Assembly (NCBI GenBank): GCA_030390025.1
Contig: CM059431.1
Span: forward strand, 126,110,001-126,174,000
Origin: Squalus acanthias
Lineage: Eukaryota
Reading direction: 5' to 3'
Length of the DNA stretch: 64,000 bases
The position numbers and the translations under genes are program-made. Within the stretch, counting starts at the first letter, position 1. Every line of letters starts with the position of its first letter. Shown piece after piece: positions 1 through 46,777 of this stretch. The notes under the pieces were generated by a model, which saw nothing but the letters and a program-made list of their open reading frames with translations, had not been told where the DNA came from and searched no databases.

Positions 1-274
1 ACAGCAGGAAGAGAAGTCGAGGCCAGAAGAGGTCCAAACAGGTAAGATTTTTAAGAACTTTTTTAAACTTTCCCTGTGGGACTAGGAGGAGCATGAGTGG
101 CACTCCAGGCCTCAAAGGAAAGCTTAGGCCTCCCCTGGACCCGCCTCCACCCTTCTCAAATGCGAGGCCTTGCTGAAACCTACTCCCCATTATTTACGAG
201 AGTGTTGGCAAACATTGCTTCGATTTGGGTGGGTATGTAACTGTGGCCAGGGATCTAAAATTACGCAGGATAAA

Positions 275-366
275 GGGAAAGGTAGCATAGTGGTTATGTT
301 ACTGGACTAATAATCCAGAGGCCTGGCCTAATGATCAGGAGACATGAGATCAAATCCCACCACGGC
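275..366 (+). promoter_or_regulatory. tRNA-like head with Pol III A box (TAGCATAGTGG 283-293) and degenerate B box (GATCAAATC 348-356)
   Basis: Matches A-box/B-box consensus with an anticodon-like stem CTGGA..TCCAG between them; the same head opens copy 3 at 43626. Confidence 0.8.
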
Positions 367-3300
367 AGTAAGGAATTTAAATGCAGTTATTTAAATAAAT
401 CTGGAATAAAAAGCTGGCATCAGTGTTACTACCGCATTGTCGTAAAAACCCATCTGGTTCACTAATGTCCTTTAGGGAAAGAAATCTGCCGTCCTTACCC
501 GGTCCAGCCTATATGTGATGACAGACCCACAGCAATGTGGTTGACTCTTAACTGCCCTCTGAAATGGCCTATCAAGCCACTCAGTCGTAACAAACCGCGA
601 CAGAAAACAATAATAAGAATAAAACCGGATCAACTTCGGACACGACGAAGGCACACCCAGCCCAGTCGAGCCTGCAAAGTCCTCCTCACTAACATCTGGG
701 GACATGTGCCAAAATTGGGAGAGCTTCCCCACAGACTAGTCACACAACAGCCTGACATAGTCATGCTCACAGAATCATACCTTTCAGCCAGTGTCCCAGA
801 CTCCTCCATCACCATCCTTGGGTATTTCCTGTCTCACCAGCAGGAAAGACCCACCAGAGGTCATGGTATATAGGTAGGAGGGAGTGGCCCTGGGAGTCTC
901 ATGGCATCAGATCAAACATGGGCAAGATTACCATCTACCGCCCTCCCTCAGCTGATGAATCAGTACTCCTCCATGTTGAACACCACTTCGAAGTAGTACT
1001 GCGGGTACAGAATGTACTCTGTGTGGGGGACTTCAATGTCCATCACCAAGAGTGGCTCAGTAGCACCACTACTGACTGAGCTGGCCTAGTCCTGAAGGAT
1101 TAAGCTGCCAGACTGGACCTGCCACAGGTGGTGAGAGAACCAACACGAGGGAAAAACCGACTTGACCTCGTCCTCACCAATTTACCTGTCACAGATGCAT
1201 CTGTCCATGACAGTATTGGTAGGAGTGACCACCGCACAGTCCTTGCAGAGATGAAGTCCCTTCTTCACACAGAGGACACCCTCCATCATGTGTGGCTCTA
1301 CCAATGTGCTAAATGGGATAGATTCAGAACAGATCTAGCAGCTTAAAACTGGGCATCCATGAGGCGCTGTGGGCCATCAGCAGCAGCAGAATTGTATTCC
1401 ACTATAATCTCATGGCCTGGCATATCCCTCACTCTACCATCACCATCAAGCCAGGGGACCAACCCTGGTTCAACAACGAGTGTAGAAGAGCATGCCGGGA
1501 GCAGCACCAGGCGTACCTAAAAATGAGGTGCCAACCTGGGTAAGCTGCAACACAGGACTACATGCATGCTGAAAAACGGAAGCAGCATGCTATAGACAGG
1601 GCTAAGCAATCCCACAATCAACGGATCAGATTAAAGCTCTGCAGTCCTGCCACATCCAGTCGTGAATGGTGGTGGACCATTAAACAACTGACGGGAGGAG
1701 GAGACTCCAAGAATGTCCCCATCCTCAATGATGGTGGAGCCCAGAATGTGAGTGCAAAAGACAAGGCTGAAGCGTTTGCAACCAACATCAGCCAGAAGTG
1801 CCGAGTGGATGATCCATATCGGCCTACTCCCGAGGTCCCCACCATCACTGAAGCCAGTCTTCATTCCACGTGATATCAAGAAATGGCTGAACACACTGAA
1901 TACAGCAAAGGCTATGGGCCCCGACAACACCCTGGCTATCGTGCTGAAGACTTTTGCTCCAGAACTAGCCACGCCTCTAGCCAAGCTGTTCCAGTACAGC
2001 TACAACACAGGCATCTATCCGACAATGTGGAAAACTGCCCAGGTATGTCCTGTCCACAAAAAGCAGGACAAATCCAACCCGGCCAATTACCGCCCCATCA
2101 GTCTACTCTCAATCATCAGCAAAGTGATGGAAGGTGTCATCGACAGTGCTATCAAGCAGCACTTACTCACCAATAACCTGCCCACTGATGCCCAGTTTGG
2201 GTTCCACCAAGACTACTCGGTTCCTGACCTCATTACAGCCTTGGTCCAAACATGGACAAAGCTGAATTCCAGAGGTGTGGTGAGAGTGACTGCCCTTGAC
2301 ATCAAGGCAGTATTTGACCGAGTCTGGCATCAAGGGGCCCGAGTAAAACTGAAGTCAATGGGAATCAGGGGAAAACGCTACACTGTCTGGAGACATACCT
2401 AGCACAAAGGAAAATGGTTGTGGTGGTTGAAGGTCAATCATCACAGCCCCAGGACATCGCTGCAGGAGTTCCTCAGGGCATTGTCCTAGGCCCAAACAAC
2501 TTTAGCTGCTTCATCAATGACCTTCCCTCCAACATAAGGTCAGAAATGGGGATGTTCGCTGATGACTACACAGTGTTTAGCGCCATTCACAACTCCACAG
2601 ATAATGAAGCAGTCCATGCCCGCATGCAACAAGACCTGGACGACGTTCAGGCTTGGGCTGATAAGTGGCAGGTAACATTCGCGCCACAGAAGTGCCAGGC
2701 AATGACTATCTCCAACAAGCGAGAGTCTCACCACCTCCCCTTGACATTCAATGGCATTACCATCACCGAATCCCCCTCTATCAACATCCTGGGGGTCACC
2801 ATTAACCAGAAATTTAACTGGACCAGCCACATAAATACTGTGGCAACAAGAGCTGGTCAGAGGCTAGGTATTCTGCGGCGAGTGTCTCACCTCCTGACTC
2901 CCCAAAGCCTTTCCACCATCTACAAGGCACAAGTAAGGAGTGTGATGGAATACTCTCCACTTGCCTGGATGAGTGCAGCTCCAACAACACTCAAGAAGCT
3001 GACACCATCCAGGACAAAGCAGCCCGCTTGATTGGCACCCCATCCACCACCTTAAACATTCACTCCCTCCACCACCAGCGTACCGTGGCTGCAGTGTGTA
3101 CCATCTACAAGATGCACTACAGCAACTCACCAAGGCTTCTTCGGCAGCACCTCCCAAACCCACGACCTCTTCCACCTAGAAGGACAAGGGCAGCAGGCGC
3201 AAGGGAACACCACCACCTCCAAGTTCCCTTCCAAGTCACACACCATCCTGACTTAGTAGTATATCGCCGATCCTTCATCGTCACTGGGTCGAAATCCTGG

Positions 3301-3460
3301 AACTCCCTACCTAACAGCACTGTGGGAGTACCATCACCACACGGACTGCAGCGGTTCAAGAAGGCGGCTCACCACCACCTTCTCAAGGGCAACTAGGGAT
3401 GGTCAATAAATGCTGGCATGGCCAGCGACGCCCAGATCCCATAAACAAATTTAAAAAAAA
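275..3460 (+). mobile_element. Full-length single-ORF non-LTR retrotransposon (APE+RT, CR1/L2/Jockey superclade) with tRNA-derived 5' head, copy 1, decayed
   Basis: APE motifs (PDIVMLTESYL at 535-873, GDFN, SDH at 1128-1346); RT motifs (NYRPISLL, ALDIKAVFDRVWH, GVPQG, FADD) in 1752-3031; C-terminal KSWNSLP; 3' UTR with AATAAA and an A-rich tail ending ~3460. Several frameshifts and stops. Confidence 0.92.
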
Positions 3461-6400
3461 TGGGAGGAGGAGGCTCCATGAACATCCCCATTCTCAATGA
3501 TGGTGGAACCCAGCACGCGAGTGCAAAAGACAAGGCTGAAGCGTTTGCAACCATCTTCAGCCAGAAGTGCCGAGTGGATGATCCATCTCGGCCTACTCCT
3601 GAGGTCCCCACCATCACAGAAGCCAGTCTTCAGCCAATTCAATTCACTCCACATGATATCAGAAACGGCTGAGCGCACTGGATACAACAAAGGCTATGAG
3701 CCCTGACAATATCCCGTCTGTTATGCTGAAGACTTGCGCTCCAGAACTGCCCAGGTCTGTCCTGTCCTCAAAAAGCGGGACAAATCCAATACAGCCAATT
3801 ACCGCCCCATCAGTCTACTCTCAATCATCAGCAAAGTGATGAAAGGTGTTATCGACAATGCTGTCAAGCGGCATTTACTCACCAATAACCTGGTCACCGA
3901 TGCTCAGTTTGGGTTCCGCCTGGACCACTCGGCTCCAGACCTCATTACAGCCTTAGTTTAAACATGGACAAAGGAACTGAATTCCAGAGGTGAGGTGAGA
4001 GTGACTGCCCTTGACATCAAGGCAGCATTTGACCGAGTGTGGCATCAAGGAGCCAGAGTAAAACTGAAGTCAATGGGACTCGGGGGGGTGAAACTTTCCA
4101 CTGACTGGAGTCATACCGAGCACAAAGGGAGATGGTTGTGGTTGTTGGATGCCAATCATCACAGCCCCAGAATATCGCTGCAGGGGTTCCTCAGGGCAGT
4201 GTCCTAGGCCCAATCATCTTCTTGCTGCTTCATCAATGACCTTCCCTCCATCATAAGGTCAGAAGTGGGGATGTTCTTTAATGATTGCACAGTTTTCAGT
4301 TCCATTCGCTACTCCTCAGAAATGAAGCAGTCCATGCCAGCATGCAGCAAGACCTGGACAACATTCAGGCTTGGGCTGATAAGTGGCAAATAACTCTCAC
4401 GCCACACACGTGCCAGGCAATGACTATCTCCAACAAGAGAGCATCTAACCACCACCCCTTGACATTCAACAGTATTAACATCGCTGAATCCCCTGACATT
4501 AACATCCTGGGGGTCACCACTGTAAGGGGTTCGGTCGTAGGTGCTTGTGCGGGGTTAGGCCTTTGTTGCCTAATACTATTGCTTGCTCTGGTCTCCGGCC
4601 AGCCTTGTTGCAATAAGCACCTGTGAGTGGTTCGACCCACTCGCCCTTACGGTTCTAACACTGGACTTAGGTGCGAGAGCAGTAATGCAGAGAAAAACTC
4701 AAATAGACCCGGTTGAATAGTACGAAATGGAAATCTTTATTGCATAACGTCCAAAATCATGAAGTACATGTCATAGGCACAAATTAATGACAGTACAAGT
4801 ATACATACATTCATAAAACTTGGTCTAGGGTAATGAGGAACGCACGGCACATCATAAAAAGGGGAACACATTATATTTATCCTTAATAAAAACCACCCTC
4901 CCCTATCAATACCTACACTAATCTAGATTTGTAGGATCGTGAAACATGCTCACCACTCGTGATACTTCGGAGAATTTTAAACTAAGGCACTCGGCTCGTT
5001 TCGCTGCAGTTCTTTCTTGTATTTTCGGGTGCGGTCGGGGTTTACTGACCGTGGCGGTACGTGGATTCTTCTCCTCTTCTTCTCGTCTCGTCTCGTCTCG
5101 TCTCTTCGGGCCTTCGGGTCCAGACACCGTTTACCGACTCTCGGGATGGTGCACCCGGTCACTGGCCTTCGTCGAGGCGACTCGTTCCGTTCGAGCTCCA
5201 CCCAACATAGTCAACAGAGTCCAGAGAAAAACAGAAGGCTGCTCGTCCAGCAGAGCGATCCCCGAGGATCAGAATAGGAGAATAAAAGTTCAGCAGTCAT
5301 CAGCGAGATAAAACAGTCAAGAGACCGATGGACATTTGTTCTCTATAGTTATAGTGCTGTGTCCCCTTATCTCCCGCTCAAATCTTGATGTTTGTCCTTT
5401 GTGTAATACTGGTGCACAAAACTCCCAGCATGGGGCGATTCTTTCCTTTAATGGGTATTGGTAGCACCTGAAACTGGCCAACTATCCGTTAATGTTTTCC
5501 CCATTGTCGAACCGGCTAGGAGTCTCCCTGACTGGTTTTGGGGCCTCCTCGAATACTGATATGTGTATTGCTGTGTCTGGATGGGCCTTCGATTGCCCAG
5601 TACAATGGTCCTTACTTGTGCATGGAAAATGATTCCAGCACTTATATCTTTGCTATTGTCACAAATGCAAACAGGTTGCATCCTGTCTTTATCAATGTTT
5701 GCCGAGTATTATCCAATCTTATACTGAAATGTTTATTCGAACGCCATCTTGTCTGCCCACTGTATTCTGGAAGCTTCTGCCACGATGCTCGGCGGCCATT
5801 TTACAGGCTTCTGTGTCCTTTATATCATGACAGCATTTCGTTGAAATAAAACTGATGAAACGAATCTGCTTTATCTCGTTATTTCGAATCGCGATAATTG
5901 CGAATTTTACACCACTGACCAGAAACTTAACTGGACCAGCCACATAAATACTGTGGCGACAAGAACAGGTCAGAGGCTGGGTATCCTTTGGCGAGTGTGT
6001 CACCTCCTGACTCCCCAAAGCCTTTCCACCATCTACAAAGGCACAAGTCAGGAGTGTGATGGAATACTCTCCACTTGCCTGGATGAGTGCAGCTCCAACA
6101 GCACTCAAGAAGCTCGACACCATCCAGGACAAAGCAGTCCGCTTGACTGGCACCCCATCCACCACCTTAAACTTTCACTCCCTCCACCACCGGCGCACTG
6201 TAGCTGCAGTGTTTACCATCTACAAGATGCACTGCAGCAACTCGCCAAGGCTTCTTTGACAGCACTTCCCAAACCCACGATCTCTACCACTTAGAAGGAC
6301 AAGCGCAGCAGGCGCATGGGAACACCATCACCTCCAAGTTTTCTTCCAAGTCACACACCATCCTGACTTAGAAGTATTTCGCCGATCCTTCAACGTCGGT

Positions 6401-6575
6401 GGGTCAAAATCCTGGAACTCCCTCCCCAACAGCACTGTGGGAGTACCTTCACCACGCAGACTGCAGCATTTCAAGAAGGCGGCTCACCACCACCTTCTCA
6501 AGGGCAATTAGGGATGGGCAATAAATGCTGGCCTTGCCTGTGACGCCCACATCCCAGGAACGAAGAAAAAAAAAA
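3461..6575 (+). mobile_element. 5'-truncated copy 2 of the same LINE, directly after the tail of copy 1, interrupted by a solo LTR at 4521-5911
   Basis: Collinear with 1693-3450; RT fragments in ORFs 3460-4626 and 5953-6294; same 3' UTR and A tail at ~6565-6575. Confidence 0.92.
4521..5911 (-). mobile_element. Solo LTR, 1391 bp, of an LTR retrotransposon or endogenous retrovirus
   Basis: TGTAA...TTACA termini; 4-bp TSD CCAC (4517-4520, 5912-5915); removal restores the host LINE. Minus orientation is inferred only from a TATA-like motif near 5350 and AATAAA near 4740. Confidence 0.8.
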
Positions 6576-15200: not shown

Positions 15201-18200
15201 CAAGGATGTCTCAGAGCGGCTGCAGAACATTCTGGAAAGGGAGGGTGAAGAGCCAGCTGTCGTGGTGCATGTAGGTACCAACGATATAGGTAAAAAGCAG
15301 GAAGAGGTCCTACAAGCAGAATTTAGGGAGCTAGGAGCTAAATTGAAAAGTAGGACCTCAAAGGTAGTAATCTCTGGGTTGCTAACAGTGCCACGTGCTA
15401 ATCAGAGTAGCATGAACAGGATAGCGAGATTAAATACGTGGCTTGAGCAGTGGTGCAGGAGGGACGGATTCAAATACCTGAGGCATTGGAACCAGTTCTG
15501 GGGGAAGTGGGACCTGTACAAAAGGGACGGTCTGTACTTGGGCAGGACTGGAACCGATGTCCTCGGGGTAATATTTGCTAAGGCAGTTCGGGAGGATTTA
15601 AACTAATATGGCAGGGGAATGGGAACCTATGTAGCGAAACAGGGGGAAGTAATATGCAGTCAGAAACAAATGTTAGAAGGGTGAGAAACAATAAGGGAAA
15701 TCCGAGTAAACAAAGGCAAGAAACACAAAGGGCCATACTAAATCATAAGTCTAAAAGGACAAAGGGTGTTAATAAAACAAGCCTAAAGGCTCTGTGTCTT
15801 AATGCAAGGAGTATCCGTAATAAGGTGGATGAATTGACTGTGCAAATTGATGTTAATGGATATGATGTGATTGGGATTACAGAGACGTGGCTCCAGAACA
15901 ATCAAGGCTGGGAACTGAATATCCAGGGGTATTCAACATTCAGGAAGGATAGAATAAAAGGAAAAGGTGGTGGGGTAGCATTGCTGGTTAAAAAGGAGAT
16001 TAATGCAGTAGCTAGGAAGGACATGAGCTTGGAGGATGTGGAATCAATATGGGTTGAGCTGCAGAACACCAAAGGGCAGAAAACATTAGTGGGGGTTGTG
16101 TACAGACCTCCAAACAGTAGTAGTGAGGTGGGGGAGGGTATGAAACAGGAAATCAGAGGTGCATGCAAAAAGGGCGCAGCAGTTATCATGGGTGACTTTG
16201 ATATGCATATAGATTGGGCTACTCAAACTGGAAGCAATACGGTGGAGGAGGATTTCCTGGAGTGTTCAAGGGATGGTTTCCTAAACCAATATGTTGAGGA
16301 ACCAACTAGAGGGGAGGCCATCCTGGACTGGGTGTTGTGTAATGAGGAAGGACTAATCAGCAATCTTGTGGTGCGAGGCCCCTTGGGGAAGAGTGACCAT
16401 AGTATGGTGGAGTTCTACATTAGGATGGAGAAGGAAACAGTTAATTCAGAGACCATGGTCCAGAACTTAAATAAGGGCAACTTTGAGGGTATGCGGCGTG
16501 AATTGGCGAGGTTAGATTGGCAAGCGATATTTAAGGGGTTATCAGTGGAAGGGCAATGGCGGACATTTAGAGATCGCATGGATGAACTACAGCAATTGGA
16601 CATCCCTGTCTGGCGTAAAAATAAAAAAGGGAAGGTGGCTCAACCATGGCTAACAAGGGAAATCAGGGATAGTATTAAAAGCAAGGAAGTGGCATACAAA
16701 TTGGCCAGAAGTAGCAGCAAACCCAGGGACTGGGAGAACTTTAAAACTCAGCAGAGGAGGACGAAGGGTTTGATTAGGGCAGGGAAAATAAAATATGAAA
16801 GGAAGCTTGCAGAGAACATTAAAACGGACTGCAAAAGCTTCTATAAATATGTAAAAAGAAAGAGGTTAGTAAAAACAAACATAGGTTCCCTGCAGTCAGA
16901 AACAGGGGAAGTCATAATGGGGAACAAAGAAATGGCAGATCAATTGAACAAGTACTTTGGTTCGGTGTTTACTGTGGAGGACACAAACAACCTTCCGGAA
17001 ATAAAAGAGATTAAAGGATCTGGTAAGAGGGAGGAGCTGAGGGAAATCCTGATCAGTCGGGAAAAGGTATTGGGGAAATTGATGGGACTGAAGGCTGATA
17101 AATCCCCAGGGCCTGATGGTCTGCATCCCAGAGTACTTAAGGAGGTGGCCTTGGAAATAGTGGATGCATTGACGATCATTTTCCAACATTCCTTAGACTC
17201 TGGATCAGTTCCGAAGGAGTGGAGGGTGGCTAATGTTACCCCTCTTTTTAAAAAAGGAGGGAGGGAGAAAGCAGGGAATTATAGACCGGTCAGCCTGACA
17301 TCGGTGGTAGGTAAAATGATGGAATCAATTATTAAAGATGTCATAACAGACCATTTGGAAAGTGGCGACATGATAGATTCAAGTCAGCATGGATTTGTGA
17401 AAGGGAAATCATGCTTGACAAATCTTCTGGAATTTTTTGAGGATGTTTCTAATAGGGTGGACGGGGAGGAACCAGTAGATGTGGTGTATTTGGACTTTCA
17501 GAAGGCCTTCGACAAGGTCCCACACAAGAGATTGGTGTGCAAAGTTAAAGCACATGGGATTGGGGGTAATGTGTTGACGTGGATTGAGAACTGGTTGGCA
17601 CACAGGAAACAAAGAGTAGGAGTAAATGGGTACTTTTCAGAATGGCAGGCAGTGACCAGCGGGGTACCGCAGGGTTCGGTGCTGGGGCCCCAGCTGTTTA
17701 CATTATATATTAATGATTTGGACGAAGGGATTAATTGTAATATCTCCAAATTTGCGGATGACACTAAATTGGGAGGCAGTGTGAACAATGAGGAGGATGC
17801 TAGGAGGCTACAGAGTGACTTGGACAGGTTGGGTGAATGGGCAAATGTATGGCAGATGAAGTACAATGTGGATAAATGTGAGGTTATCCACTTTGGTGGT
17901 AAAAATAGGGAGGCAGACTATTACCTGAATGGTGGCAGATTAGGGAAAGGGGAGGTGCAACGAGACCTGGGCGTCATGGTACATCAGTCACTGAAGGTGG
18001 GAAGGCAAGTGCAGCAGGCAGTCAAGAAAGCAAATGGCATGATGGCCTTCATAGCAAGGGGATTTGAGTACAGGAGTAGGGAGGTGATGCTACAGTTGTA
18101 CAGGGCCTTGGTGAGGCCACACCTGGAGTATTGTGTGCAGTTTTGGTCTCCTAACTTGAGGAAGGACATTCTTGCTATTGAGGGAGTGCAACGAAGGTTC

Positions 18201-18691
18201 ACTAGATTGATTCCTGGGATGGCCAGACTGACATATCAAGAAAGACTGGATCAACTGAACTTGTATCCTCTGGAGTTCAGAAGAATGAGGGGGGATCTTA
18301 TAGAGACGTTTAAAATCCTGACTGGTTTAGACAAATTAGATGCGGGCAGAATGTTTCCAATGTTAGGGAAAACTAAAACCAGGGGTCACAGTCTAAGGAT
18401 AAAGGGGAAGCCATTTAAGACTGAGATGAGGAGGAACTTCTTCACCCAGAGAGTGGTGAATCTGTGGAATTCTCTACCACAGAAGGATGTTGAGGCCAGT
18501 TCGCTAAATATATTCAAAAGGGAGTTAGATATAATACTCACAACGAGGGGGATCAAGGGGTATGGTGAGAAAGCAGGAATGGGGTACTGAGGTAGCATGT
18601 TCAGCCATGAATGCATTAAATGGCAGTGCAGGCTCGAAGGACCGAATGGTCTACTCCTGCACCTATTTTCTATGTTTCTATGTTTCTATGT
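15201..18691 (+). mobile_element. CR1 LINE B, 5'-truncated within ORF1, inserted antisense into CR1 A
   Basis: 9-bp TSD AAAGTATGT (15192-15200, 18692-18700); ORF1 esterase remnant 15201-15606; (TTCTATGT)n tail. Confidence 0.96.
15654..18590 (+). CDS. CR1 ORF2 protein, AP-endonuclease + reverse transcriptase, 978 aa, uninterrupted
   Basis: [72 protein letters not shown]. Confidence 0.95.
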   Translation: MQSETNVRRVRNNKGNPSKQRQETQRAILNHKSKRTKGVNKTSLKALCLNARSIRNKVDELTVQIDVNGYDVIGITETWLQNNQGWELNIQGYSTFRKDRIKGKGGGVALLVKKEINAVARKDMSLEDVESIWVELQNTKGQKTLVGVVYRPPNSSSEVGEGMKQEIRGACKKGAAVIMGDFDMHIDWATQTGSNTVEEDFLECSRDGFLNQYVEEPTRGEAILDWVLCNEEGLISNLVVRGPLGKSDHSMVEFYIRMEKETVNSETMVQNLNKGNFEGMRRELARLDWQAIFKGLSVEGQWRTFRDRMDELQQLDIPVWRKNKKGKVAQPWLTREIRDSIKSKEVAYKLARSSSKPRDWENFKTQQRRTKGLIRAGKIKYERKLAENIKTDCKSFYKYVKRKRLVKTNIGSLQSETGEVIMGNKEMADQLNKYFGSVFTVEDTNNLPEIKEIKGSGKREELREILISREKVLGKLMGLKADKSPGPDGLHPRVLKEVALEIVDALTIIFQHSLDSGSVPKEWRVANVTPLFKKGGREKAGNYRPVSLTSVVGKMMESIIKDVITDHLESGDMIDSSQHGFVKGKSCLTNLLEFFEDVSNRVDGEEPVDVVYLDFQKAFDKVPHKRLVCKVKAHGIGGNVLTWIENWLAHRKQRVGVNGYFSEWQAVTSGVPQGSVLGPQLFTLYINDLDEGINCNISKFADDTKLGGSVNNEEDARRLQSDLDRLGEWANVWQMKYNVDKCEVIHFGGKNREADYYLNGGRLGKGEVQRDLGVMVHQSLKVGRQVQQAVKKANGMMAFIARGFEYRSREVMLQLYRALVRPHLEYCVQFWSPNLRKDILAIEGVQRRFTRLIPGMARLTYQERLDQLNLYPLEFRRMRGDLIETFKILTGLDKLDAGRMFPMLGKTKTRGHSLRIKGKPFKTEMRRNFFTQRVVNLWNSLPQKDVEASSLNIFKRELDIILTTRGIKGYGEKAGMGY

Positions 18692-21433
18692 AAAGTATGT
18701 ATTTAATTGGTCTGCCATTTCTTTGTTCCCCATTATAAATTCCCCTGATTCTGACTGCAAGGGACCTACACTTGACTTCACCAATCTTTTTCTCTTCACA
18801 TATCTGTAGAAGCTTTTATAGTCAGTTTTAATGTTCCATGCAACCTTACTCTCATACTCTACTTCCCCCCTCTTATTTAACCCCTTTGTCCTCCTTTGCT
18901 GAATCCTAAACTGCTCCCAATCCTCAGGTTTGCTGCTTTTTCTGGCCAATTTATATGTCCTCTCCTTGGATCTTATGCTATCCCTAATTTCCCTTGTTAG
19001 CCACAGTTGAGTCACCTTTTTTGTTTTATTTTTATGCCAAACAGGGATGAAAAAATTCTGTAGTTCATCTATGCGATCTTTAAATGCTTGCCATTGCCTA
19101 TCAACCGTCAACTCTTTAAGTAACGTTCCCCAATCCATCCTTGCCAATTCGCGCCTCATACCATCGTAGTTTCCTTTATTTAAATTCAGGACCCTAGTCT
19201 CTGAGTCAACTACTTCACTCTCCATCTTAATGAAGAATTCCATCATATTATGATCGCTCCTCCCCAAGGGGCCTCGCACAACAAGATTGCTAATTAATCC
19301 TTTCTCATTATATAATTCCCAGTCTAAGATGGCCTGATCTCCAGTTGGTTCCTCGACATATTGGTTCAGGAAACCATCCCGTATACACTCTAGGAATTCC
19401 TCCTCCACAGTATTGTTACTAATTTGGTTAGCCCAATCTATATGTAGATTAAAGTCACCCATGATAACTGCTGTGCCCTTATTGCACGCATCTCTAATTT
19501 CCCGTTTAATGCCATCCCCAACCTCAGCATTACTGTTTGGGGGTCTGTATACAACTCCCACTAACATTTTCTGCACCTTGGTATTTCTCAGCTCTACCCA
19601 TACAGATTGCACATCATCAGAGCTAATATCCTTCCTTACTATTGTGTTAATCTCCTCTTTAACCAGCAATGCTACCCCACCTCCTTTTCCTTTTTGCCTG
19701 TCCCTCCTGAATATTGAATACCCCTGGATGTTGAATTCCCAGCCTTAGTCACCTTGGAGCCACATCTGCGTAATCCCAATTATATCATATCCATTTACAT
19801 CTATTTGCGCAGCCAATTCATCCACCTTATTATGAATGCTCCTCGCATTAAGACACAAAGACTTCGGGCTTGTTTTTTTAAAAAACACTTTTTGACCTTT
19901 GTTATTTACTGTGGCCATGTTTGATTTACACCTTTGATTTCTCTGACTGCCATTTTTGCTTTTCTCCTTCCTGTCTTTTGCTTCTATCCTTGCTTCCCTT
20001 TCCTCTGTCTCCCTGCACAGGGTCGCAACCCCCTGCCATTTTAGTTTAAACCCTCCCCAACAGCATTAGCAAACACTCTCCCTGGGACATCAGTCCCGGT
20101 CCTGCCCAGGTGCAAACCGTCCAGTTTGTACTGGTCCCACCTCCCCCAGAACCGGTTCCAATGTCCCAGGAATTTGAATCCCTCCCCCTTGCACCATTCC
20201 TCTAGCCATGTATTCATCTGAAATATCCTCCTATTTCTACTCTGACTAGCACGTGACACCGGTAGCAGTCCTGAGATTACTACCTTTGAGGTCCTATTTT
20301 TTAATTTACCTCCCAACTCCCTATATTCAGCTTTTAGGACCTCATCCCGGTTTTTACCTATATCGTTGGTACCTATATGCACCACGACAACTGGCTGTTT
20401 ACCCTCCCTCTCCAGAATGCCCTGCAGTCGCTCCGAGACATCCTTGACCCTTGCACCAGGGAGGCAACATACCATCCTGGAGTCTCGTTTGTGGCTGCAG
20501 AAACGCCTATCTATTCCCCTTACAATAGAATCCCCTATTACTATAGCTCTCCTGCTCTTTTTCCTCCCGTCCTGTGCAGCAGAACCACCCATGGTGCCAG
20601 GAAGTTGGCTGCTGCTGCCTTCCCCCGATAAGCCATCTCCCTCAACAATATCCAAAGTGGTATATCTGTTTGAGAGGGGGATGGCCACAGGGGACCCCTA
20701 AACTACCTGCCTGCGCCTACTACTCTTCCTGGCGGTCACCCATTCCCTTCCTGCCTGTGCAGCCTTTACCTGCGGTGTGACCAACTGATTAAACGTGCTT
20801 TCCACGACGTCCTCAGCATCGCGAATGCTCCAGTATGTATCCATTCGCAGCTCCAGCGCCACAATGCGGTCTGCCAGTAGCTGCAGCTGGATACACTTCC
20901 CACACACATGGTCGTCAGGGACACAGGAAGTGTCCCTGATTTCCCACATAGTGGAGGAGGAGCATAGCACGGGGCCAAGCTGTGCTGCCATGACTTACAC
21001 TTTAATTAATTTAAATTAAATTAAATCAAAGCCACTAATTGCACTACAATTAAATGATATACTCAAGGGCCCTTGTTTACTAGTACTCCCCGCTACACAA
21101 CAGAGACCTTAGAAACTATAACCACAAAAATTAGGACCTTCTAAACTTTATAAACTATTAACCTTAACTGTCAAACTATAGAGTAGTATAAATACTCACC
21201 TGGCCATACTCCCCCAATCAGCTGCTTCCTCTTGCCCGTATCACTTTTTGAATCGTGGCGTGGCTCTGGAACGCCGCCGCCGGTTTGCGAGATTGACCAG
21301 CCTTTGAAAAAAAGCCCGCGAAAGTAAGTTTAAATACTCAGGGTGAAAAGTTAGGAAAAACAAAGGGGACGCAAGGGAGCTCCTCCTTCCACTCCTCACC
21401 CAACTAGCAGCACTCTGTTGAAAGCACACTCAG
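18692..21433 (-). mobile_element. CR1 LINE A, 5' part (5' UTR, ORF1, APE half of ORF2)
   Basis: APE ORF 18686-19669 (VYRPP, GDFN, SDH); joins 15200 exactly once CR1 B is removed. Confidence 0.95.
20041..20991 (-). pseudogene. CR1 A ORF1: zinc-finger/leucine zipper plus SGNH esterase-like domain
   Basis: Degenerate Cys motif with CGKC, heptad leucines, IGDSIVRG, CLPGA, HIGTND, DGLHL; one in-frame stop near 20698. Confidence 0.9.
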
Positions 21434-43625: not shown

Positions 43626-46600
43626 GGGAACGGTAGCATAGTAATTATGTTACTGGACTAGTAATCCAGAGGCCTGGACTAATGATCCAGAGACGTGAGT
43701 TCAAATACCACCATGGCAGCTGGGGAATTTAAATGTAGTTAATTAAATAAATCTGGAATAAAAAGCTACTATCAGTAATGGTAACCATGAAACTATCGGA
43801 TTGTCGTAAAAACCCATCTGGTTCACTGATGTCCTTTAGGTCTGGCCTATATGTGACCCATAGCAATGTGGTTGACTCTTAACTGCCCTCTGAAATGGCC
43901 GAGCAAGCCACTCAGTTGTAAAAAAACGCTATGAAAAACATTAAGAAAAAAAACAAACGGACCACCGGCATCGACTTCAGTACCAGCTACTGACACGATA
44001 ACGGCACACCCAGCCCTAACATCTGGGGACTTGTGCCAAAATTGGGAGAGCTGTCCCACAGACTAGTCAAGCAACAGCCTGACATAATGATACTCACAGA
44101 ATCATACCTTTCAGCCAATGTCCCAAACTCCTCCATCACCATTCCTAGCTATGTCCTGTCCTACCAGGGGAGGCAGCTCAGTGATATACAGTTGGGAGGG
44201 AGTGGCCCTGGGAGTCCTCAACATTGACTCCAGAGTCCATGAAGGTCAAGCAGGGGCAAGAAAACCTCATGCTGATAACCATCTACTGCCCCCCATCAGC
44301 TGATCAATCAGTACTCCTCCATGTTGAACACCACTTGGAAGAAGCTGTTGCAAGGGCACAGAATGTACTCTGGGTGGGGGACTTCAATGTCCATCACCAA
44401 GAGTGGCTCGGTAGCACCACTACTGACCATGCTGACCTGAAGGATATAGCTGCCAGTCTGGACCTGCGACAAATGATGAGAGAACCAACACGAGGGAAAA
44501 ACCTACTTGACATCAGCCTCACCAATCTACCTGTCACAGATGTATCTGTCTATGACAGCACTGGTAGCAGTGACCGCCGCACAGTCCTTGTGGAGACGAA
44601 GTCCCGTCTTCACACTCAGGGTACCCACCATCGTGTTGTGTGTCACTACCACCGTGCTAAATGGGATAGATTCAGAACAGATCTAGCAGTTCAAAACTGG
44701 GCATCCATGAGGCGCTGTGGGCCATCAGCAGCAGCAGAATTGTATTCCACCACAATCTGTAACCTTATGGCATGGCATATCCCTCACTCTACCATTACCA
44801 TCAAGCCAGGGGACCAATCCATCAAGCCAGAAGCAGCACCAGGAGTATCTAAAAATGAGGTGCCAACCTGGGGAAGCTGCAACACAGGACTACATGCATG
44901 CTAAAAAGCGGAAGCAGCATGCTATAGACAGAGCTAAGCGATCCCACAATCAAGGGATCAGATCAAAGCTCTGCAATCCTGGCACATCCAGTGGACCATT
45001 AAACAACTCACGGGAGGAGGAGGCTCCATGAATATCCCCATCCTCAATGATGGTGCAGCCCAGCACGTGAGTGCAAAAGACAAGGCTGAAGCATTTGCAA
45101 CCATCTTCAACCAGAAGTGCCGAGTGGATGATTCATATCGGCATTCTCCTGAGGTTCCCACCACCACAGAAGCCAGTCTTCAGCCAATTCGATTCACTTC
45201 ACGTGATATCAAGAAACGGCTGAGCGCACTGAATACAGCAAAGGCTATGGGCCCCGACAACATCCCGGCTATCGTGCTGAAGACTTGTGCTCCAGAACTA
45301 GTCGTGCCTCTAGCCAAGCTGCTCCAGTACAGCTACAACACTGGCATCTACCCGACAATGTGGAAAACTGCCCAGGCATGTCCTGTCCACAAAAAGCAGG
45401 ACAAATCCAATCCAGCCAATTATTGCCCCATCAGACTACTCTCAATCATCAGCAAAGTGATGGAAGGTGTCATCAACAGTGCTATCAAGAGGCACTTACT
45501 CACCAATAACCTGCTCACTGATGCCCAGTTTGGGTTCCGCCAAGACCACTTGGCTCAAGACCTTGTTACAGCCTTGGTCCAAACATGGGCAAAAGAGCTG
45601 AATTCCAGAGGTGAGGTGAGAGTGACTGCCCTTGACATCAAGGCAGCTTTTGACCGAGTGTGGGATCAAGGAGCCCTAGTAAAACTGAAGTCAATGGGAA
45701 TCGGGGGGGAAACTCTCCACTGGCTGGAGTCATACCTAGCACAAAGGAAGATGGTTGTGGTGGTTGGAGGTCAATCATCACAGCCCCAGGACATCGCTGC
45801 AGGAGTTCCTCAGGGTAGTGTCCTAGGCCCAACTATCTTCAGCTGCTTCATCAATTACCTTCCCTGCATCATAAGGTCAGAAGTGGAGATGTTCGCTGAT
45901 GACTGCACAGTGTTCAGTGCCATTTGCAACTCCTCAGATAATGAAGCAGTCCATGCCTGCATGCAGCAAGACCTGGATGACATTCAGGCTTGGGCTGATA
46001 AGTGGCAAGTAACATTCACGCCATACAAGTGCCAGGCAATGACTATCTCCAAAAGCACGCATCTAACCATTCAACACCATTACAAGAGCAGGTCAGAGTC
46101 TGGGTAATCTGCGGCAAATGTCTCACCTCCTGACTCCCCAAAGCCTTTCCACCATCTACAAGGCACAAGTAAGGAATGTGATGGAATTGTCTCCACTTGC
46201 AGGATGAGTGCAGCTCCAAAAACACTCAAGAAACTTGACACCATCCAAGCCAAAGCAGCCCACTTGATTGGCACTCCATCCACCACCTTAAACATCCACT
46301 CCCTCCACCATCGGCGTACCGTGGCTGCAGAGTGTACCATCTACAAGATGCACTGCAGCATTTCGAAAGGCTTCTTTGGCAGCACCTTCCAAACCTGCAA
46401 CCTCTACCACCTAGAAAGACAAGGGCAGCAGGAGCATGGAAACACCACCACCTACAAGTTCCCCTCCAAGTCAGACACCATCCTGACTTGGAAATATATC
46501 GCAGTTCCTTCATCGTCGCTGGGTCAAAATCCTGGAACTCCCTCCCTAACAGCTCTGTGGGAGTACCTTCACCGCAAGGACTGCAGCGGTTCAAGAAGGC

Positions 46601-46692
46601 AGCTCACCACCACCTTCTCAAGGGCTACTAGGGATGGAAAATAAATGCTGGCCTTGCCAGCGACGCCCACATCCCATGAATGAATAAAAATA
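43626..46692 (+). mobile_element. Copy 3 of the tRNA-headed single-ORF LINE, near full length, decayed
   Basis: Head GGGAACGGTAGCATAG, B box GTTCAAATA 43699-43707; APE ORFs 44033-44904 (VGDFNVHH), RT ORF 45028-46107 (FADD); same 3' UTR and tail. Confidence 0.93.
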
Positions 46693-46777
46693 AATTGTGC
46701 TTCCCTGGGTCAGGCGGTTGCAAATCAGCAGTCTAAAGTCAAGTCCTGGGCCCCCATTACAATCAATGGAGATACTA

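Follow-up and report, generated by a model that had tools for sequence, protein, structure and literature searches.

Which RNA polymerase copies a LINE that begins like a SINE? By the current working rule, LINEs are transcribed by Pol II, and SINEs, which are non-coding, by Pol III (excerpts of PMC5786205 and PMC10886601). This rule is challenged by a family of elements in a 64,000-nucleotide stretch of the Squalus acanthias genome (assembly GCA_030390025.1, contig CM059431.1, positions 126,110,001 to 126,174,000; hereafter the window). The challenge rests on full-length copies whose first base is +1 of a head of Pol III type, on a body free of runs of four T (T4), and on a SINE-like short sibling. 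Judged by their sequence, the elements are autonomous single-ORF LINEs of ~3.2-3.3 kb that encode an endonuclease and a reverse transcriptase, and they open with a tRNA-derived head of SINE type that bears a type-2 Pol III promoter. They belong to the self-copying elements of a large vertebrate genome, and a tRNA-like promoter is usual only for the tiny, non-coding ones. The headed LINE also offers a concrete model for the meeting of SINE heads and LINE bodies.

Anatomy of the headed LINE and its copies

Three copies of the headed LINE, with limits set by blastn, lie on the + strand of the window. Copy 1 (275-3460, 3186 nt) is full-length but decayed, and is 94.4% identical to the majority sequence of 13 copies. 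It opens with the tRNA-derived head (275-368), identified by a weak Rfam tRNA match and by the majority of 50 heads, followed by a 5' leader (369-630) whose first part, to ~557-589, also occurs in the SINE-like short form. The coding region for an apurinic-type endonuclease (APE; 631-1409) was located by tblastn and is frameshifted; that for the reverse transcriptase (RT) occupies 1845-3001 (Pfam RVT_1, E=5.4e-13 and 6.7e-17). The 3' end (3394-3460) holds a TAG stop (3394-3396), an AATAAA hexamer (3405-3410), and an A-run (3453-3460). Copy 2 adjoins the A-tail of copy 1 and is 5'-truncated, beginning at about position 1419 of copy 1. It is split into a first part (3461-4522; blastn limit 4519) and a second part with an A-tail (5910-6575) by a 1387-nt insertion (4523-5909, no strand assigned) that is unrelated to the LINE and flanked by an 8-nt direct repeat, CACCACTG, at 4515-4522 and 5910-5917. 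The insertion is T-rich, and its six T4 runs are foreign to the LINE. Copy 3 (43626-46694, 3069 nt) is a full-length headed copy with a Pfam Exo_endo_phos_2 match (E=2.2e-11).

For the family, we used 13 colinear full-length copies of 3.07-3.27 kb, two from the window and 11 from the genome. All are individually decayed or broken, with longest open frames of 165-389 codons. Their majority sequence (3301 nt) contains a 958-codon open frame that carries APE and RT in one sense-strand frame. For the element, Pfam gave Exo_endo_phos_2 (E=2.2e-11) and RVT_1 (E=9e-32). Such a length and a protein-coding majority place the element outside the SINEs, which are short (< ~700 nt) and non-coding, and it behaves as a LINE in that its copies are scattered, share one 3' end, and are often cut short at the 5' side. 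From the head to the APE we saw no further ORF (no ORF1), and we found no convincing target-site duplications in the 13 full-length copies, and obtained generic RVT_1 clusters alone when the protein was compared with the ESM Atlas. Nine of the 13 copies lack an in-frame ATG upstream of the endonuclease domain, and unconventional initiation would fit this lack of a conserved start. Copy 1 alone has an open, in-frame ATG at 535-537, which we discarded as the family start codon.

At the 3' end, which reads ...AATAAA...GAACGAATAAAAAAA, the hexamer is kept in 12 of the 13 copies, ~40 nt before the A-tail. A T4 or T5 lies between AATAAA and the A-run in two of the 13 copies (L046 and L062) and a TTT in two more; the majority has none. 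The conserved hexamer and the gradient of 5' truncation are ordinary in Pol II-transcribed LINEs and count against Pol III.

The consensus motifs of Pol III-type heads are TRGCNNAGTGG for the A box and GWTCRANNC for the B box. The majority of 50 heads fits both, with TAGCATAGTGG at 9-19 and GTTCAAATC at 73-81, and in having these boxes at the 5' end the head majority agrees with tRNA-derived SINEs. Among the 50 decayed heads, 31 retain the A box, 37 the B box, and 22 both. Copy 1 has the A box TAGCATAGTGG at 283-293; at the B-box position (346-357) it reads GAGATCAAATCC, the family majority GAGTTCAAATCC, and its anticodon stem-loop is duplicated. The head is tRNA-like in two halves: an Rfam tRNA match at 276-329 scored 20 bits, and another, on the copy L064, scored 23.5 bits and spanned the second stem-loop and the T arm. 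Neither reaches the gathering score of 29 bits, and ARAGORN reported no tRNA in the head. An Rfam scan of window positions 200-700 (E<=1) found no HDV-like ribozyme and returned the weak tRNA as its sole match; in four other copies the scan likewise gave no ribozyme, only the tRNA match and a chance miRNA match.

We then asked where copies begin. Eleven of the 13 full copies start at GGGAA, with unrelated DNA upstream, and alignments of the head start at position 1 in 32 of 50 cases and within the first four positions in 43. In an unbiased sample of 20 copies picked by mid-region, ten reached the 5' leader, with starts at 1, 1, 1, 2, 3, 4, 16, 134, 189, and 234; the head was present in six or seven of these ten. 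Truncations lay within the leader in three of the ten, and further in for 9-10 of the 20. A headless full-length class was absent from this sample. Contigs of four public runs, none on record as RNA and all used solely for family variants and joints, showed a depth that climbs ~tenfold toward the LINE 3' end. In 4/4 runs, contigs also connect position ~557-589 to ~3355-3369, the joint of a SINE-like short form of ~400 nt with the same head, its first 280-315 nt in common with the LINE.

T-runs and TT depletion

For human Pol III, T4 is the minimal terminator, and six or more T are required for full termination (excerpt of PMC5725217). An initial annotation of the window had listed four sense-strand T4 runs in the headed LINE, and our counts matched it exactly: one in copy 1 (1952-1955), two in copy 2 (4293-4296 in its first part and 6339-6342 in its second), and one in copy 3 (45648-45651), at a T content of 0.195-0.222. 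Each run was indeed private, as had been stated. Copy 1 reads GTGTTT and GTTCCC at the two copy 2 sites and ATTTG at the copy 3 site; at position 1954, the family and the contigs of 4/4 public runs have G, not T; and no T4 column is common to more than two of the 13 copies. A4+ runs are common (16, 5, and 21 in copies 1-3), and the neighboring CR1 element carries T4-T6 runs, both in agreement with the annotation.

Across the family, the 13 full-length copies hold 0-2 T4+ runs each, a total of 11 in 41,596 nt versus ~58 expected from base composition. Their majority contains 0 T4+ runs, 7 exact TTT, 17 A4+, 11 C4+, and 9 G4+, which upholds the claim that the element has no conserved TTTT. The majority thus shares with SINEs a transcribed strand free of internal T4+, weakly beyond chance.

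Two T4s that are shared between copies were considered as subfamily markers and rejected as recurrent events. Two different changes gave rise to TCTTTT or TCCTTTT in five of 48 leaders. A 10-nt deletion allele that creates a T4 is present in L039, L051, and L062, of which L051 and L062 have only five derived states in common and so belong to different subfamilies; L040 was picked up by the deletion-allele pattern, yet its sequence differs.

The initial annotation had put the chance expectation at 4-9 runs, which proved too high. Mononucleotide shuffling gave 3.90 T4+ runs (P(0)=0.0135), and the value fell to ~1.7-1.9 when codons or dinucleotides were kept: 1.85-1.91 in the ORF by synonymous-codon shuffling (P(0)=0.10-0.11), 1.78 by codon permutation (P=0.14), and 1.66 over the whole element by a first-order Markov model that keeps dinucleotides (P=0.17). 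A second-order Markov model gave 0.47 (P=0.63). The consensus is T4-free, but so are ~10-11% of its synonymous shuffles.

Other measures departed further from expectation. The ORF of the headed LINE holds five T3+ runs versus 11.2 expected by synonymous shuffling (P=0.004), and T|T occurs at eight codon junctions versus 23.9 expected. Overall, TT has odds of 0.72 (5' leader, 0.71) and AA of 1.00; the depletion is strand-specific. The annotation's proposal that selection maintains Pol III read-through is supported in part: the depletions of TT, T|T, and T3+ point its way, but the absence of T4, although real, is not significant (P=0.10-0.17 in codon- or dinucleotide-aware nulls).

As a headless control we used a young CR1 on the + strand of the window (15240-18692; tblastn, Pfam). 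It comprises the end of ORF1 (~15240-15600), an open ORF2 of 996 codons (15600-18587), and the 3' repeat (TTTCTATG)n, and is 99% identical to 39 genome copies. Its ORF2 contains five T4+ runs versus 10.9 in its own synonymous shuffles (P=0.005), 29 T3+ runs versus 37.4, and 29 T|T junctions versus 37.2, with TT odds of 1.11. In the contrast with headless elements that the annotation had called for, CR1 has T4 runs and no shortage of TT, but is also depleted relative to its own shuffles. By observed/expected ratios (our arithmetic), T-run depletion in the headed LINE does not significantly exceed that in CR1, and the clear differences are restricted to the T|T junction ratio and the TT odds, all headless controls being of one clade (CR1) with a base composition very different from that of the headed LINE. 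When coding pieces of the headed family were pooled (116 segments, 68 kb), they held 21 T4+ runs versus 92.5 expected from composition; for the CR1 families of those loci, the observed/expected values were 6/7.3, 29/33.9, and 49/25.9. Apart from the headed family, a tblastn search of the window and the sampled genome loci found only LINE fragments of CR1 type, related to the neighboring CR1, and no same-clade headless relative.

The lack of T4 in the headed LINE is mostly explained by T-poor, TT-poor, C-ending codon usage. It is weak evidence of selection, and no proof of it, because 10-17% of codon- or dinucleotide-preserving random sequences are T4-free as well and because headless CR1 is also depleted; for Pol III read-through it adds a likelihood ratio of just about 6-14. 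The true oddity of the headed LINE is the strand-specific depletion of TT, rather than the T4 count.

Routes of transcription

We tentatively regard Pol III read-through of the whole headed LINE as the single most likely mechanism, albeit an unproven one. With TFIIIC and Pol III bound at the A and B boxes, initiation would occur at +1 of the head. With no sense-strand T4 in the master, Pol III would traverse all 3.3 kb; a T4-free master is a necessary condition for such read-through. The resulting RNA would be the reverse-transcribed template and would pass the head, from +1, to every full-length daughter. Two parts of this scheme are inferred from the sequence, namely synthesis of the full-length RNA by Pol III and selection against T-runs. 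The anatomy, namely the boxes, the +1 ends, the lack of a headless full-length class in the unbiased sample, and the short form with its shared head, favors Pol III better than the T4 count does.

An ordinary Pol II-transcribed LINE is a serious alternative, though a somewhat doubtful one. The leader would then be an internal Pol II promoter, the head a passenger acquired once, by recombination or template switching with a related SINE-like element, and the lack of T4 a by-product of codon usage. That 10-17% of codon- or dinucleotide-aware random controls are T4-free, and that CR1 shows T-run avoidance in LINE ORFs without a head, both fit this alternative, as do the AATAAA ~40 nt upstream of the A-tail, the 3'-ward rise in coverage that LINEs in general show, and the prevailing view that LINEs are transcribed by Pol II (Kojima; excerpts of PMC5786205 and PMC10886601). 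However, in thousands of daughters, Pol II initiation would need to coincide exactly with the initial base of a tRNA-like sequence. The canonical A and B boxes of the head majority, the two AATAAA hexamers in the opening 140 nt of the RNA (394-399 and 405-410 in the leader of copy 1), and a depletion of TT and T|T far stronger than in CR1 also argue against it.

The avoidance of TT is wider than avoidance of T4 needs, and may thus have another cause. The strand-specific shortage of TT and TA could reflect another pressure on the RNA or a lineage mutation bias, independent of the polymerase; avoidance of U-rich instability or nuclease sites and lineage-typical codon usage are candidates. We consider this unlikely. 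In its favor, the depletion extends to simple TT pairs, at which Pol III does not terminate, TA is low along with TT (odds of 0.66 and 0.72; TG 1.43, TC 1.17), and Phe and TTR-Leu codons are few, with 27 TT at codon positions 1-2 versus 75 in CR1. However, CR1 families of the same genome show no such pressure (TT odds 1.11-1.20), and the TT odds of the leader (0.71) equal those of the ORF. Least probable by far are headless masters whose RT switches repeatedly, in the common leader, from LINE RNA to the abundant short-form RNA and ends at +1: the common 280-315 nt, head included, would supply the homology and the short form occurs in 4/4 runs, but none of the ten leader-reaching sampled copies lies at a common headless start, six or seven are headed, the best 40 5' matches all cover the head, and switching would need to be almost obligatory.

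If Pol III read-through is indeed the route, the messenger for the headed LINE protein may be the same uncapped RNA or occasional Pol II transcripts. The first case would amount to a 'coding SINE', in which Pol III would transcribe ~3.3 kb of T-run-free coding sequence and the uncapped RNA would serve as both template and APE/RT messenger. We think this full version rather improbable; if true, it would give the first natural example of a Pol III mRNA on the kilobase scale, and the element would stand, as a living intermediate, between LINEs and their SINE parasites.

Comparison with known systems

We know of no natural vertebrate Pol III transcript that is both kilobase-long and protein-encoding, which counts against the read-through proposed here. 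Searches of the full-text literature turned up no autonomous LINE with a tRNA head; an earlier description may exist in Repbase reports or in papers under subscription. In sharks and rays, the HE1 SINE and HER1 LINE form a pair in which a tRNA-derived SINE has a LINE-type tail (excerpt of PMC3747384); we liken the headed LINE to this pair by description only. Like tRNA-derived SINEs, it carries its A and B boxes at the extreme 5' end, starts at +1 of the head, lacks an internal T4, and has a 3' end of LINE type and a ~400-nt short form. Unlike SINEs, which are short and unable to encode protein (excerpt of PMC5786205), it spans 3.2-3.3 kb and codes for an endonuclease and a reverse transcriptase.

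The headed LINE resembles the CR1/L2 group in its APE-RT ORF, which aligns with CR1 ORF2 (residues 23-945, 26% identity), and in its 5'-truncated copies without clear target-site duplications. In the strict sense, the CR1 clade has an ORF1 and an 8-nt 3' microsatellite of the ATTCTRTG type. Both are present in the neighboring CR1 and neither in the headed LINE, which has an A-rich tail and AATAAA instead of (TTTCTATG)n. It is also C-rich and T-poor and carries a tRNA head, unlike the C-poor CR1.

The 3' end invites comparison with the T+ SINEs of mammals (B2, Dip, and Ves), whose Pol III transcripts are polyadenylated via AATAAA (excerpt of PMC8466645). The AATAAA shortly before the A-rich tail of the headed LINE suggests a possible poly(A) route for a Pol III transcript; unlike T+ SINEs, which have a terminator between AATAAA and the tail, it has a T4 or T5 there in just two of 13 copies. 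For the 5' end, precedents exist of LINE RNAs that need translation although they differ from a standard capped Pol II transcript. R2 (cited in PMC5786205), which is co-transcribed with rRNA, and L1Tc (excerpt of PMC3383444) both form an RNA 5' end without capping via an HDV-like ribozyme. The route that we propose for the headed LINE differs from theirs, in that it would use an internal Pol III promoter, not co-transcription and self-cleavage.

The tRNA-headed LINE and its copies

Within this eukaryotic assembly of 3.7 Gb, a blastn search of the window with 275-3460 as the query returned three plus-strand copies of the tRNA-headed, single-ORF LINE (headed LINE): copy 1 at 275-3460, copy 2 at 3461-4519 plus 5910-6575 (5'-truncated, with a foreign insertion between its parts) and copy 3 at 43626-46694. 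Copies 1 and 2 lie in tandem, the A-tail of copy 1 abutting the truncated start of copy 2 at 3460/3461. The insertion splitting copy 2 is T-rich, spans 1387 nt (4523-5909) and lies between 8-nt direct repeats CACCACTG (4515-4522 and 5910-5917). A terminal inverted repeat was looked for in it and not found; its TAAGG start makes a non-autonomous element of hAT type a possibility. On its sense strand, the headed LINE encodes an Exo_endo_phos_2 endonuclease domain (E=2.2e-11) and an RVT_1 reverse transcriptase (E=9e-32; both Pfam).

Searching the genome with the first 426 nt yielded 7705 first-look candidates; 40 were scored, and each of them covers the head. Eleven of the 39 places fetched in full length were colinear full-length copies; the remainder were interrupted, deleted internally or cut short. 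Together with two window copies, they form a set of 13 full copies, which are 93-96% identical to their majority sequence (computed in script) and comprise at least two or three subfamilies. The majority is 3301 nt long with a single open frame of 958 codons, disrupted in every real copy (best, 165-389 codons). At the 3' end, a TAG stop is followed by a conserved AATAAA (3405-3410 in copy 1), ~40 nt and an A-run. Two more canonical AATAAA motifs lie in the leader, less than 140 nt from the 5' end (394-399, 405-410).

The tRNA-like portion comprises the first 95-100 nt. At 276-329 the Rfam tRNA model scored 20 bits, aligning an acceptor, D arm and anticodon arm, and on another copy it aligned a second anticodon-like stem-loop plus T arm (23.5 bits); both matches fall under the 29-bit cut-off, and ARAGORN called no tRNA in the head. 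Given these partial matches and the ARAGORN result, the head is a derivative of a tRNA whose anticodon arm has been duplicated, similar to a SINE head, and not a tRNA gene. Two near-identical anticodon-type stem-loops are seen within 275-368: CTGGACTA[A/G]TAATCCAG and CTGG[A/C]CTAATGATCCAG. The majority of 50 heads holds an A-box candidate, TAGCATAGTGG, at 9-19 and a B-box candidate, GTTCAAATC, at 73-81, which match the A-box and B-box consensus; their spacing of ~51 nt reflects the duplication inside the head. The stretch ahead of the endonuclease domain (element ~260-420) is length-variable among the genome loci L032-L065. Across the 13 copies, no in-frame ATG is conserved upstream of the endonuclease domain: nine lack one, copy 1 alone carries an open one at 535-537, and in three copies from a younger subfamily one occurs near position 340.

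T runs in the headed LINE

On recount, we obtained exactly the sense-strand runs of at least four T (T4+) reported in the initial annotation: 1952-1955 in copy 1, 4293-4296 and 6339-6342 in copy 2, and 45648-45651 in copy 3. A4+ runs number 16, 5 and 21, respectively. Each T4 had been described as private, and the other window copies do differ there (GTGTTT, GTTCCC, ATTTG); position 1954 is G in contigs of four public runs. The 13 full copies carry 0-2 T4+ each (11 in total), each T4 column being common to at most two copies, and three columns are shared. One, at a CCTTTA site, arises where a C became T or an extra T was inserted, and 5/48 leaders have T4 there via these two different changes. 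Another follows a 10-nt deletion near element position 1600 in loci L039, L051 and L062 that creates TTTT and a frameshift; the deletion seems to be recurrent, because L051 and L062, with only five derived states in common, come from different subfamilies. The third, shared by L046 and L062, is in their 3' tail. The consensus check put forward initially came out T4-free: the majority has no T4+, with 7 TTT, 17 A4+, 11 C4+ and 9 G4+.

Whether this absence exceeds chance depends wholly on the null model. For the whole element, a mononucleotide shuffle expects 3.90 T4+ (P(0) 0.0135), a first-order Markov model 1.66 (0.17) and a second-order one 0.47 (0.63). For the ORF, the proposed synonymous-codon shuffle expects 1.85 and 1.91 against none observed (0.11 and 0.10) and codon-order permutation expects 1.78 (0.14); a first-order model of the 360-nt leader alone expects 0.40 (0.67). 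The product of the figures for the ORF and the untranslated regions is P~0.07 for zero T4+. The original estimate of 4-9 runs therefore holds only under the crudest, mononucleotide model. The T4 observation is confirmed, and its statistical weight is modest.

The truly unusual feature is a shortage of TT, of T3+ (runs of at least three T) and of T|T codon junctions rather than the T4 absence. TT odds are 0.72 (leader, 0.71) and AA odds 1.00; the ORF has 5 T3+ versus 11.2 by synonymous shuffling (P=0.004) and 8 T|T junctions versus 23.9 expected, a ratio of 0.33, comparable to the CpG deficit at C|G (0.28). The dinucleotide bias of the whole element is strand-specific, with TT (0.72) and TA (0.66) low and TG (1.43) high on the sense strand.

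A headless CR1 as control

The neighbouring CR1 (15240-18692) has the end of an ORF1 with an esterase-like motif, an open ORF2 of 996 codons and a (TTTCTATG)n tail. With 39 other copies in the genome matching it at 99% identity, it is close to its master; on the same grounds its family looks very young and is probably still active. Its ORF2 holds 5 T4+ and 29 T3+, with TT odds of 1.11 and 29 T|T junctions versus 37.2 expected. In the headless comparison suggested at the outset, CR1 does have T4 runs, yet it is also depleted relative to its own synonymous shuffles in T4+ (10.9 expected, P=0.005) and T3+ (37.4 expected, P=0.007). When its expectations are scaled by the CR1 ratios, the headed LINE is significantly lower only in T|T (8 versus ~18.7), not in T4 (zero) or T3 (five).

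We also pooled the coding pieces from every fetched locus, taking expectation by composition. The headed LINE (116 segments, 68 kb) had 21 T4+ versus 92.5 expected and TT odds of 0.75. The control set, CR1 only and C-poor, gave 6 versus 7.3 (TT odds 1.12) at ≥85% identity (2 segments, 3.4 kb), 29 versus 33.9 (1.11) at 65-85% (18 segments, 12.3 kb) and 49 versus 25.9 (1.20) at 35-65% (24 segments, 10.2 kb). Because the controls are all CR1, with no close headless relative among the fetched loci and window, lineage-typical composition is inseparable here from head-linked selection.

Which polymerase makes the template

In 11/13 full copies, GGGAA forms the 5' start and adjoins unrelated DNA. The 5' end of the template RNA is preserved in its daughter copies; the template therefore began at the first base of a Pol III-type head and ran to the A-tail. 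Pol III initiating at an internal promoter would give RNA from head +1 through to the A-tail, and is the simplest way to account for both ends. A T4-free body would then be required, because Pol III must run through the whole element; T4 is the minimal human Pol III terminator, with full termination at T6 or more (PMC5725217). As a necessary test for Pol III, the T4-free body carries a likelihood ratio of only about 6-14. The selection for read-through proposed initially is consistent with the T4-free majority and the TT, T3+ and T|T depletion, and is tempered by P values of 0.10-0.17 on codon and first-order nulls and by the depletion in CR1.

The main rival, nearly as likely, has Pol II transcribing the element from the leader, treats the head as a passenger and attributes the T shortage to codon usage. 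Kojima's papers describe LINEs as Pol II-transcribed and SINEs as incapable of encoding protein (PMC5786205 and PMC10886601). Recurrent template switching onto a short-form RNA is not supported by a sample of 5' ends. A SINE-like short form does occur in several organisms. It comprises the head, ~200 nt of the leader and ~100 nt from the 3' end: contigs of 4/4 runs (X1, X3, X9, X16) connect ~557-589 directly to ~3355-3369. The 64-kb window has no such short form. However, when 20 copies were picked by mid-region only and their expected 5'-end sites fetched, the 10/20 that reached the leader had no common post-head start: six began at 1-4, one at 16, and three were truncated at 134, 189 and 234.

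The headed element itself is more interesting than the T4 count behind which it stands. A search of the open full-text literature, with Repbase reports and non-open papers outside its scope, found no tRNA-headed autonomous LINE; the shark pair HE1/HER1, from a table in PMC3747384, is set beside it by name. R2 and L1Tc, whose 5' ends are made by ribozymes, are the nearest precedents for the translation of an uncapped LINE RNA that full read-through would imply; an Rfam scan of the headed LINE's leader returned neither an HDV-type ribozyme nor any other Rfam family.
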